Assembly (NCBI GenBank): GCA_051656605.1
Contig: JBOGCF010000026.1
Coordinates: forward strand, 7,148-71,147
Direction: 5' to 3'
Source: Tannerellaceae bacterium
GTDB lineage: Bacteria; Bacteroidota; Bacteroidia; Bacteroidales; CAMTPD01
Length of the DNA: 64,000 bases
The position numbers were made by a program, and so were the translations under genes. Shown piece by piece: positions 31,594-37,400 of the stretch (positions are counted from its first letter, which is position 1; every line of letters starts with the position of its first letter). The notes under the pieces were generated by a model. The model was not told the DNA's origin and did no database searches. It was given only the letters and a program-made list of their open reading frames with translations.

Positions 31594-31665
<72 letters not shown>

Positions 31666-35256: not shown

Positions 35257-35937
35257 TTATACCTCGCTGATTTTCCAGAAGCTATACGACACATCTTCGT
35301 CGTATACATCTGTTTGCTCTACACGTTTGATGTAGTTCACGATAAGTTTAGTAATCGGAAGGATTACAATTTCGTAAGCTGTTTTTAAAACCGCCTGCGT
35401 GCCGATCATGATTAGTAGATCATTAAACGGAACAATGCCAAAGAAAGCGATTGGGAAGAATACCATCGAATCGGCCGATTCTCCTACCATTGTTGAAACA
35501 ACGGCACGAAGCGAAAAATTGCGTCCGCCCGAGGCGATCTTCATTTTACTCATCACATAAGCGTTGAGAAACGAACCGATCAAAAATGCACAAAGGCTTG
35601 CTACGGCAATACGCGGAGTCATTGCAAAGATTGATTTAAAAGCTTCCTGTCCTTCGTAGAAAGGAGCTGCCGGAAGCGCAACTGCTATTTGTGCCAAACC
35701 AACCACAAAGAAGTTCATGGCAAACCCGCTCCAAATGATCAGACGCGCTTTTTTATAGCCCCATACTTCGGCTATCAGGTCGTTGATAATATAAGAAATC
35801 GGGAAAACGATAAGGCCGGCAGTTGCCGTGATAGGACCAATTTGAATTAGTTTGGTCTCGAGAAGATTTGCTGCAATCAAACAAACGTTGAATAAGATTG
35901 CAAGCATCATAAATGTAACTGAAACTTGTTTCTTCAT
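35257..35937 (-). CDS. yhhQ: Queuosine-precursor transporter (VUT/YhhQ family)
   Basis: 226 aa, about 6 TM helices. YhhQ-like sequence (FPISYIINDLIAEVWGYKKARLIIWSGF, ESADSMVFFPIAF). Confidence 0.85.
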   Translation of the reverse strand: MKKQVSVTFMMLAILFNVCLIAANLLETKLIQIGPITATAGLIVFPISYIINDLIAEVWGYKKARLIIWSGFAMNFFVVGLAQIAVALPAAPFYEGQEAFKSIFAMTPRIAVASLCAFLIGSFLNAYVMSKMKIASGGRNFSLRAVVSTMVGESADSMVFFPIAFFGIVPFNDLLIMIGTQAVLKTAYEIVILPITKLIVNYIKRVEQTDVYDEDVSYSFWKISEV

Positions 35938-35944
35938 TGTTATT

Positions 35945-35975
35945 CTTGTTTTTTACGTGGTTATACAAGCACACG
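35945..35975 (-). promoter_or_regulatory. Candidate preQ1-I riboswitch aptamer (H-type pseudoknot) in the yhhQ 5' UTR
   Basis: Minus-strand RNA is CGUG-UG-CUUG-UAUAAC-CACG-UAAAAAA-CAAG. P1 is CGUG/CACG and P2 is CUUG/CAAG. The loop ends in AAC and the L3 tail is A-rich, paralleling the Bsu/Tte preQ1-I layout. It ends 7 nt before the AUG. Confidence 0.5.
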
Positions 35976-36001
35976 GACCTCCACCATCGGATAATCTGCC
36001 G

Positions 36002-36009
36002 CAAAGTTA
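36002..36009 (-). promoter_or_regulatory. Candidate -7 box TAACTTTG for yhhQ
   Basis: TAnnTTTG match on the minus strand, about 27 nt upstream of the proposed aptamer and downstream of the M16 terminator. Confidence 0.45.
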
Positions 36010-36075
36010 CGGTTTTTATTTCTATTGCGAATCTAAATACTGTTAATGCGATGCGGAGACAAGTAGATTGCGAGG

Positions 36076-36129
36076 GAAGGAAGAAAAGAAAACCGGTGAT
36101 CTTGGGCTTTTTTGCACAAAATCACCGGT
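36076..36129 (-). terminator. Intrinsic terminator of the M16/cyclophilin operon
   Basis: Perfect 9-bp stem ACCGGTGAT / ATCACCGGT. On the minus strand it is followed by TTTCTTTTCTTCC. Confidence 0.8.
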
Positions 36130-36161
36130 CGTTATCCTTTGTTGTCTGTACGAATACAGCC

Positions 36162-37400
36162 TTACTTGTTGGCTTTGTAAAACAGCGTTGAGCAGTTGGT
36201 AGGGGCAAATACTTTGCGAGCTGTTGCTTGCACTTGTTCCGGAGTGGTAGCTCTGTAGCGAAGTACCTCGGTGTCGATGTCTTCGGCTTTGCCTACCAGT
36301 TCGTAAAAACAAAGACTCGAAGCCATGTTCGAATAGTGGATGTGTGAGAATAGGTGATTGGATTCGAACTTATTCTTCACTTTCTCCAGCTCGTTGTTGT
36401 CTACAAGTTCCTGACTCAACGCTGCGAGCTCTTCTTCAATTGCAGCATTGATGGTTTCAAGTGTATTGCCAGGCGTAGGTTTTGCCGTAACGTAGATGAC
36501 ACCCGGATCTATATCGCCCGAAATGTAAGCGTTTACTTCGGAGCAAAGTTGTTTGTTTTGCACCAAGTTTTGATACAAACGTGCCGAGCGGCCGTTGGCC
36601 AATACATCCGAAAGCATATCACAGGCATTGAAGTCGGCATCGGTACGTGAACACATGTGATAGGCTTTGAACAAGGCATCAAGAGGTACATCTTTGTAAA
36701 CCTCAAGGAAGCGAGCTTCTGTTTGCGGAGCTTCTTGTGCAATAGCACGAACCTTTATATCGCGTCGCGGAATCGGACCAAACCATTTCTCGGCTAGTTG
36801 TACCGCTTCTTTGAATTCGATATTTCCTGTAACGGCAACGATGGCATTGTTAGGTGCATAATGATTGTAGAAGAAAGCTTTTACATCATCTAGTGTTGCG
36901 TTTTCGATGTGAGAAAGATCTTTACCGATTGTAGGCCACATATAGGAGTGCGACTTGTAAGCAAGCGGTTTTAGCAAGTGCGGCACATCTCCATAAGGTT
37001 GGTTTAGTACGCGTTGCTTGAATTCCTCGATTACGACATGCTTTTGTACGTCGAGTGATTTTTGAGAGAAATCGAGCGAAAGCATTCGATCCGACTCTAA
37101 CCAGAAACCAATCTCTACGTTTTGTTTTGGTAAGGTAACGTAGTAGTTGGTATAGTCGTTGTTGGTCCAGGCATTGTTCTCGCCGCCGGCAAGCTGCAAG
37201 GGTCCGTCAAAATCGGGAATGTTGATGGATCCGCCAAACATAAGGTGTTCGAAGAGGTGTGCAAAACCTGTTTGATCAGGGTCTTCATCTCTTGCGCCTA
37301 CGTCATATAGCGTATTGATACATACCATTTGTGTGGTTGTATCTTTATAATGGATCAAACGAAGGCCGTTTGCCAGTTCATGTCTGTTTATTTGTGTCAC
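36162..37400 (-). CDS. M16-family (pitrilysin/insulinase-like) zinc peptidase
   Basis: HxxEH motif (GFAHLFEHLMFGG). 412 aa. Confidence 0.88.
   Translation of the reverse strand: MTQINRHELANGLRLIHYKDTTTQMVCINTLYDVGARDEDPDQTGFAHLFEHLMFGGSINIPDFDGPLQLAGGENNAWTNNDYTNYYVTLPKQNVEIGFWLESDRMLSLDFSQKSLDVQKHVVIEEFKQRVLNQPYGDVPHLLKPLAYKSHSYMWPTIGKDLSHIENATLDDVKAFFYNHYAPNNAIVAVTGNIEFKEAVQLAEKWFGPIPRRDIKVRAIAQEAPQTEARFLEVYKDVPLDALFKAYHMCSRTDADFNACDMLSDVLANGRSARLYQNLVQNKQLCSEVNAYISGDIDPGVIYVTAKPTPGNTLETINAAIEEELAALSQELVDNNELEKVKNKFESNHLFSHIHYSNMASSLCFYELVGKAEDIDTEVLRYRATTPEQVQATARKVFAPTNCSTLFYKANK

Follow-up and report, generated by a model that had tools for sequence, protein, structure and literature searches.

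A candidate type II-like preQ1-I riboswitch with a four-base-pair P1 helix in the yhhQ leader of a Tannerellaceae bacterium

Class I riboswitches for prequeuosine-1 (preQ1), known as preQ1-I, are H-type pseudoknots that a 2024 review divides into three types (PMC11625349): (i) type I, with UC before the P1 3′ strand, UU after the P1 5′ strand, a tail C for the second ligand, and two ligands bound; (ii) type II, with AC before the P1 3′ strand; and (iii) type III, which combines UU and AC with a pyrimidine-rich loop and an AAGG Shine-Dalgarno (SD) sequence. Type III is a subtype validated by crystal structure, is almost confined to Pseudomonadota, and contacts the ligand through the AAGG of its tail (PMC11625349, PMC10622847). 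One recognized target of preQ1 riboswitches is yhhQ, whose product transports queuosine precursors (Zallot 2017, PMC5372724). A preliminary description had proposed a preQ1-I element upstream of yhhQ on the minus strand of a 64,000-nucleotide stretch of DNA from a Tannerellaceae bacterium of the phylum Bacteroidota (GenBank assembly GCA_051656605.1, contig JBOGCF010000026.1, positions 7,148 to 71,147), the whole of which is referred to here as the window. The predicted aptamer RNA spans 31 nt (35975-35945, minus strand; CGUG-UG-CUUG-UAUAAC-CACG-UAAAAAA-CAAG) and ends 7 nt 5′ of the yhhQ AUG. Its sequence, when compared with solved aptamers and with the leaders of related genes, suggests that it is very probably a class I preQ1 riboswitch aptamer of a type II-like kind, which lies in the 5′ untranslated region (UTR) of yhhQ and would turn off yhhQ translation. 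How well preQ1-I is documented in Bacteroidota had been left in doubt and is now answered in part, as the 2024 review lists this phylum for type I sequences and describes the distribution of type II as similar (PMC11625349); in an older regulon survey, Bacteroidaceae yielded only two RNA regulogs, and preQ1 riboswitches were described as confined for the most part to Firmicutes (PMC3766115).

On re-reading, the leader sequence, the P1 (CGUG/CACG) and P2 (CUUG/CAAG) strands, the 7-nt distance to the AUG, and the restriction of P1 to 4 bp were all exactly as previously claimed, and the assignment of the downstream gene to YhhQ is upheld by its Pfam match (Table 1). The elements follow in the order P1-L1-P2-L2-P1′-L3-P2′ known from the type II aptamers of Thermoanaerobacter tengcongensis (PDB 3Q50) and of Bacillus subtilis queC, with which the window element also shares a U-first L1, an L2 ending in AC, a G-C pair atop P1, a G-C pair closing P2 at the ligand site, and the link to a queuosine gene. 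The printed sequences of these aptamers (...UACAC/CCUCU AUAAAAAA CUAA for B. subtilis and ...GUAAC/CCCAG UUAACAAAA CAAGG for T. tengcongensis, the slash marking the start of the P1 3′ strand; PMC10639078) agree with two further claims of the preliminary description: that the AAC directly 5′ of the P1 3′ strand stands at the position of the ligand-pairing C, and that the L3 of the window resembles that of B. subtilis, as UAAAAAA equals the last 7 nt of the latter. The lengths of L1 (2 nt), L2 (6 nt), and P2 (4 bp) are likewise equal to those of B. subtilis, while it is T. tengcongensis that the element would resemble in acting on translation through its 3′ tail. It differs from both in that (i) P1 has 4 instead of 5 bp and its hairpin is predicted to be much weaker; (ii) L3 has 7 instead of 8 to 9 nt; (iii) neither P2 nor the tail has an SD sequence, the tail being an A-rich initiation region typical of Bacteroidota; and (iv) the Rfam PreQ1 model, RF00522, does not recognize it. 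The shorter P1 and shorter L3 are plausibly linked changes, since L3 runs along the P1 minor groove.

The features that define the class are present in the form of an H-type pseudoknot, the specificity C, the L1 uridine, the G-C pair at the top of P1, and an A-rich L3 ending in an A next to C35948. The ligand-reading residues of the solved structures (L1 U, specificity C, last L3 A, and P1 top G, with contacts described in PMC10622847 and PMC11625349) are all found and invariant. We call the element type II-like because a uridine and a purine follow P1 and AC (A35961-C35960 in the window) precedes the P1 3′ strand, a pattern common to the window and its relatives; at the second L1 position most leaders have G or A and a few have U or C, and T. 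tengcongensis has C7. A P1 of 5 bp is typical of the two solved type II representatives, though not stated as defining, and the window has 4 bp. Type I residues are replaced, with AC and UG standing for UC and UU, and one bound ligand is therefore expected; the overall pseudoknot fold and the alpha-site residues are nonetheless shared with the type I aptamer of Carnobacterium antarcticum, which holds two stacked ligands. With type III, represented by the Escherichia coli yhhQ leader, the window element has in common the yhhQ target, a presumed action at the translational level, a very small H-type pseudoknot, and AC at the specificity base. It departs from that type in its UG, its 6-nt L2 UAUAAC, and its tail CAAGAAUAACA with neither AAGG nor any other SD sequence, compared with the UU, short pyrimidine-rich loop, and 3-nt L2 of type III.

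Table 1. Features of the yhhQ leader and its surroundings in the window (minus-strand elements are listed 5′ to 3′ where they form the leader).
Feature	Positions	Strand	Remarks
-7 box UAACUUUG / TAACTTTG	36009-36002	-	Matches TAnnTTTG; 26 nt 5′ of P1; putative promoter element
Leader 5′ part CGGCAGAUUAUCCGAUGGUGGAGGUC	36001-35976	-	26 nt; no convincing P0; best P1-abutting stem has 3 bp
P1 5′ strand CGUG	35975-35972	-	Pairs with 35959-35956; G35972 is the P1 top G, corresponding to T. tengcongensis G5 (pocket floor)
L1 UG	35971-35970	-	U35971 corresponds to the ligand-contacting U6
P2 5′ strand CUUG	35969-35966	-	Within the P1 loop; pairs with 35948-35945
L2 UAUAAC	35965-35960	-	C35960 is the predicted specificity cytidine for preQ1 pairing; the preceding A35961 gives AC, the type II signature
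P1 3′ strand CACG	35959-35956	-	
L3 UAAAAAA	35955-35949	-	Expected in the P1 minor groove; A35949 corresponds to the ligand-contacting L3 adenine; positions -12 to -18 from AUG
P2 3′ strand CAAG	35948-35945	-	Positions -11 to -8 before AUG
Spacer AAUAACA	35944-35938	-	7 nt; too short for a terminator
yhhQ start codon AUG	35937-35935	-	
yhhQ (COG1738/Vut_1)	35937-35257	-	Queuosine-precursor (preQ0/preQ1) transporter; presumed regulated gene; PF02592, E 1.4e-50
Terminator-like hairpin GCAGUAC...GUACUGC with U-tract	35201-35161	-	3′ of yhhQ; read from sequence; 17-nt loop, missed by the terminator scanner
Strong terminator hairpin ACCGGUGAU...AUCACCGGU with U-tract	36129-36081	-	Of the upstream M16 peptidase gene; separates it from the yhhQ unit
	

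To follow the element beyond the window, yhhQ loci were gathered by protein similarity alone from 80 genomes of Tannerellaceae and Bacteroidaceae, giving 81 leaders with the window included. The motif was found just before the start codon in all 81, complete with P1, P2, the AC dinucleotide, the L1 uridine, and an A-rich L3. When read in register, 81 of 81 leaders have both the uridine of L1 (U35971 in the window) and the G-C pair topping P1 (G35972-C35959); apparent exceptions in the alignments were traced to register shifts, as MAFFT, faced with two extra nucleotides between P1 and P2 in the Bacteroides group, displaces the P1 5′ strand of these sequences by 2 columns. These rows were read in register by script, while the covariance model built here from the Bacteroidales copies (R1) inherited the shift. 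The A and C before the P1 3′ strand are invariant columns in both alignments used below (A1 and A2), the G35966-C35948 pair of P2 is invariant in 72 of 72 distinct aptamers, and L3 is 7 nt long in 76 of 78 leaders with its adenines unchanged. Nearly all of the clade has a P1 of 4 bp, a fifth pair being C-U or U-U if formed, and the spacer between knot and AUG is 3 to 7 nt in nearly all leaders (mode 4, window 7; three leaders parse with a spacer of 0 owing to an alternative ATG). A hairpin of at least 5 bp adjoining P1 at a gap of 0 to 1 nt, which we term P0, was detected in 39% of distinct leaders compared with 7% of shuffles (e.g., L016, L027-L037, L049, L064, L067, L092, L099, and L122), with stem sequences unrelated between lineages, and may stack on the short P1. 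In some Parabacteroides, transcription must begin nearly at P1 itself. Model R1 placed a single copy in the window (47.6 bits, compared with 8.8 bits for the runner-up), although the window sequence is among those used to train the model and the score is thus partly by construction; the model recovered every locus except two with a long L3. The latter, from Bacteroidaceae metagenome-assembled genomes (MAGs) (L072, ~455-505, and L076, ~520-572), carry before yhhQ a version with a 6-bp P1 (CGGGAG/CUCCCG), a CUAG/CUAG P2, and a 14-nt L3 (AUAAAACAUUAAAA), which is also missed by Rfam (L072 at the E-value threshold and both at the gathering threshold). In Bacteroidales bacterium Barb4 (L077, 958-2409), tandem duplicate yhhQ genes are each preceded by an aptamer of identical score (39.9 bits).

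Alignment of the related leaders, which the preliminary description had proposed as a check on P1 and P2, revealed covariation in both helices. For P1, a metagenome scan was performed with a pattern that fixed L1, P2, the AC dinucleotide, the first base of the P1 3′ strand, and the tail, leaving the P1 5′ strand and the other three 3′-strand bases free. At least 120 loci were returned. Among the matches listed, P1 was fully paired at its four positions in 112 of 119 copies, in the form of CGAG/CUCG (53 copies), CGUG/CACG (38 copies), AGAG/CUCU (19 copies), AGUG/CACU (1 copy), and UGAG/CUCG (1 copy); the protein-anchored leaders display CGUG/CACG, CGAG/CUCG, AGUG/CACU, and UGAG/CUCG. Two matches on viral contigs had neither P1 pairing nor a queuosine gene, were attributed to chance, and serve as a control. 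In the unfiltered MAFFT alignment of protein-anchored leaders (A1), 92.4% of cells were paired compared with 84.4% in shuffles and the covariation score was 0.246 compared with 0.108, none of 500 shuffles scoring as high; sliding the register lowered pairing to only 23-53%. In the alignment of 72 distinct aptamers (A2), whose sequences were pre-filtered for pairing, the corresponding values were 96.5% and 86.4% for pairing and 0.249 and 0.081 for covariation, again with 0 of 500 shuffles as high.

Because counts of sequences are not counts of events, the P1 states were mapped on a neighbor-joining tree built from the YhhQ proteins encoded downstream (171 sequences). By this count, the pair at position 3 alternated between A-U and U-A on no fewer than six separate occasions, never through an observed unpaired state, and the pair at position 1 changed at least 10 times. 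Parsing of P1 by the anchor alone is ambiguous through a CGUGUG repeat, and mis-parsed P2 labels (TTGG/CAAG) on the tree were ignored. P2 varies less than P1, with compensatory variants in UUUG/CAAA (L077), CCAG/CAGG (L065), and CCUG/CAGG (the upstream unit of L123). In Bacteroides and Phocaeicola, P2 is CUAG/CAGG or CUAG/CAAG with an internal A-A mismatch; the T. tengcongensis P2 forms canonical pairs in only two of its four steps (PMC11625349). Two loci have tandem aptamers, back to back with no spacer, before a single yhhQ. In L123 (1121-1180, minus strand of the locus) CGAG/CUCG with CCUG/CAGG is followed by CGUG/CACG with CUUG/CAAG, so that the helices differ between the units and are matched within each. 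In L119 (1835-1895) the P2 of the upstream unit is degenerate.

The genes that follow the motif were next considered. Of the metagenome copies listed, 111 of 120 precede a YhhQ homologue of 43-75% identity. Others stand directly before queC-queF (L105, L155, and L181) or queF (L116), or 167 nt before queC (L097), and Pfam confirmed the downstream products as QueC (1.4e-75) and QueF (2.1e-33). All of these are 5′ leaders of genes for queuosine synthesis or salvage, and the sharing of one motif between the precursor transporter and the enzymes that make preQ0 (prequeuosine-0) and preQ1 is indicative of a queuosine-precursor ligand. The -7 promoter consensus of Bacteroides is TAnnTTTG, and it is on this basis that the box upstream of P1 is taken as a promoter element; its position would place the aptamer within the 5′ UTR. 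A TAnnTTTG box lies within 120 nt upstream in 159 of 190 related aptamers compared with 6% of random 120-nt segments.

With regard to mechanism, the start regions of the window itself are informative. An SD-like 4-mer is found upstream of only 1 of 35 long open reading frames (ORFs), G is depleted, and the A content peaks at 0.54-0.66 at positions -14 to -12, with start codons assigned crudely; the earlier view that the P2 tail falls in an A-rich, SD-less initiation region is consistent with these values. Start regions that are SD-less, A-peaked, and G-poor are the signature expected for Bacteroidota. By analogy to the T. tengcongensis and B. subtilis structures, preQ1 (or preQ0) would stack between P1 and P2, pair with C35960, and contact U35971, A35949, and G35972. 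Binding would dock L3 and close P2 into the knot, covering positions -18 to -8 before the AUG and hiding the A-rich single-stranded tract needed by the ribosome, such that yhhQ translation may fall when enough queuosine precursor is present (an OFF switch). We infer a translational OFF switch because the knot overlaps the A-rich, SD-less initiation zone and, as it ends 3 to 7 nt before the AUG in nearly all copies, leaves no space for a terminator. A genuine aptamer could instead act mainly through transcription (by pausing or Rho-dependent termination) or through mRNA decay, given that preQ1-family riboswitches can make transcription pause in a ligand-dependent manner (PMC11625349) and that the translational route proposed here is deduced from sequence. 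This alternative is unlikely, as no terminator fits the gap between knot and AUG, the knot coincides with the A-rich -12 to -14 zone of start regions in this genome, and P2 of Bacteroides can be lengthened (AUUCUAG/CAGGAAU) until a single nt separates it from the AUG.

The same fold and logic may serve a 7-deazapurine other than preQ1, such as preQ0, queuine, or a related salvage compound. YhhQ imports preQ0 in preference to preQ1 (PMC10622847, PMC5372724), the type II aptamer of T. tengcongensis binds preQ0 only 17-fold more weakly than preQ1 (PMC10622847), and the second L1 base is unlike that of T. tengcongensis. However, all of the residues by which the T. tengcongensis and B. subtilis aptamers read the ligand are conserved, and the occurrence of the motif before queC-queF and queF, of which preQ1 is the end product, fits feedback by preQ1. 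A physiological ligand other than preQ1 thus appears decidedly unlikely.

Several observations weigh against a preQ1-I riboswitch at this site. RF00522 scored the leader at 11.5 bits compared with a gathering score of 39, which leaves it outside the family in the operational sense of Rfam; the alignment covered the tail alone (UAAAAAAC-AAGAAUAA) with the hairpin deleted. None of 20 orthologous loci reached the RF00522 threshold, and the L072 leader failed as well. The whole leader folded no better than shuffles (z = +1.47) by ViennaRNA single-sequence folding, in which pseudoknots are not modeled, and the isolated P1 hairpin, having merely 4 bp, was predicted at -1.6 kcal/mol compared with -5.9 for T. 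tengcongensis and -4.4 for B. subtilis. The second L1 base is a purine, where T. tengcongensis has C7 forming a ceiling triple. Covariation was detected at only two of four positions per helix, with the pre-filtering of A2 and the fixed P2 of the metagenome pattern to be kept in mind, and the strong conservation of loops and tail could partly reflect constraints of translation initiation. The motif taken alone is also weak evidence. A generic descriptor (4-bp P1, U-first 2-nt L1, 4-bp P2, L2 ending in AC, and an A-rich L3 of 6 to 9 nt) run on both strands matched the window once, at the candidate site, and in first-order Markov simulations of 64 kb it gave a mean of 0.36 matches with at least one in 30% of runs, such that the motif as such is not beyond chance. 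What is beyond chance is the placement 7 nt 5′ of yhhQ on the right strand, together with the conservation elsewhere.

The failure of Rfam is itself weak evidence, because RF00522 also misses the E. coli K-12 yhhQ leader (a 251-nt search relaxed to an E-value of 10 gave no match), and the model does not therefore cover all accepted subtypes. When read by eye, the K-12 leader displays UUGGG-UU-CCCU-CAC-CCCAA...AAAAAGG, which fits the published description of type III. No riboswitch is annotated at this leader (UUGGGUUCCCUCACCCCAAUGGUUAAUCAAAAAGGUACAAUAUG) in the record (L203, 6160-6220). A low RF00522 score and loss of the pseudoknot from orthologous leaders had been named together in the preliminary description as grounds for giving up the riboswitch, and the two have come apart: the score is low, but 81 of 81 leaders keep the pseudoknot. 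Weak Rfam matches to P26, STnc240, and CopA at the leader were rejected, as they represent the terminator hairpin of the upstream M16 gene.

A conserved leader element that senses no ligand, whether an A-rich translation enhancer or a protein or small RNA site peculiar to yhhQ, would account for the highly conserved sequence of tail and loops, for the failure of the Rfam model, and for the ordinary occurrence of A-rich leaders in this genome. It would not account for compensatory changes in two helices with many independent origins, for an element common to unrelated queuosine genes, or for the position-by-position match to solved preQ1 aptamers, and we regard it as very improbable. A chance set of short complementary tetramers, although expected about 0.36 times per random 64 kb by the generic descriptor, is refuted by conservation of the motif, with covariation, in every one of the 81 orthologous leaders and in over 119 metagenome copies, and has a negligible likelihood. 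A preQ1-I riboswitch that acts on translation thus remains the reading best matched to the leader as a whole.

The surroundings of the leader were also examined. Since the M16 hairpin lies upstream and a second hairpin follows the gene, yhhQ looks like a transcription unit of its own, which suggests that it is monocistronic. ORFs that run antisense to or out of frame over the leader (35852-36046 and 35937-36191 on the plus strand and 35753-36004 on the minus strand) were unsupported and dismissed. Neither queC nor queF was found within the 64-kb window. Scanning of the window at Rfam gathering thresholds returned no riboswitch and a single match, to a tRNA gene (31594-31665, minus strand; 60.9 bits). 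The closest genomes are two Porphyromonadaceae/Tannerellaceae MAGs (L001 and L002), whose similarity to the window begins at ~36047 with CATTAACAG...; the promoter, leader, and yhhQ are shared, and the sequence upstream is unrelated, so that in these genomes yhhQ is not flanked by the M16 gene with its terminator. L001 has a YhhQ identical to that of the window and an identical aptamer, yet its -7 box and spacer differ, while the YhhQ protein of L002 is 97% identical and its leader identical.

The class, its ligand logic, its link to yhhQ, and its presence in the phylum are already on record, and no concept is changed by the present findings. What varies here is the 4-bp P1 and an expression platform that, to judge by the leader, operates without an SD sequence. 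A literature search returned no paper linking Bacteroides thetaiotaomicron to a preQ1 riboswitch; a full-text search with the exact Bacteroides and Parabacteroides aptamer strings likewise returned none, with the McCown et al. 2014 survey outside its coverage; and the supplements of PMC8752633 contained no Bacteroidales names or matching sequences. We tentatively raise the possibility, which we hold to be somewhat less than even, that the copies in Bacteroidales constitute a miniature preQ1-I subtype not yet catalogued, marked by a P1 of 4 bp and an L3 of 7 nt, with or without a P0 stacked on P1, which is invisible to Rfam and gates SD-independent translation by way of the A-rich tract at -8 to -18.

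Rfam annotation misses the element in 21 of 21 Bacteroidales leaders tested. The element lies 5′ of yhhQ in Bacteroides, Phocaeicola, Parabacteroides, and Tannerella, and the motif is also found before queC or queF in environmental relatives. With a 4-bp P1 and a 7-nt L3, the element bears on how small a natural aptamer can be. It would also offer a very small test system for riboswitch repression of initiation in a phylum where SD pairing is not used, as the A-rich tail of the aptamer is itself the initiation region. If the proposed mechanism is true, the element would exemplify, in nature, riboswitch control of initiation that does not depend on SD/anti-SD pairing. In that case the salvage of queuosine precursors in the dominant gut genera Bacteroides, Phocaeicola, and Parabacteroides would be under riboswitch control. 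The queuosine-precursor economy of major gut bacteria may be subject to riboswitches that current annotation does not show.

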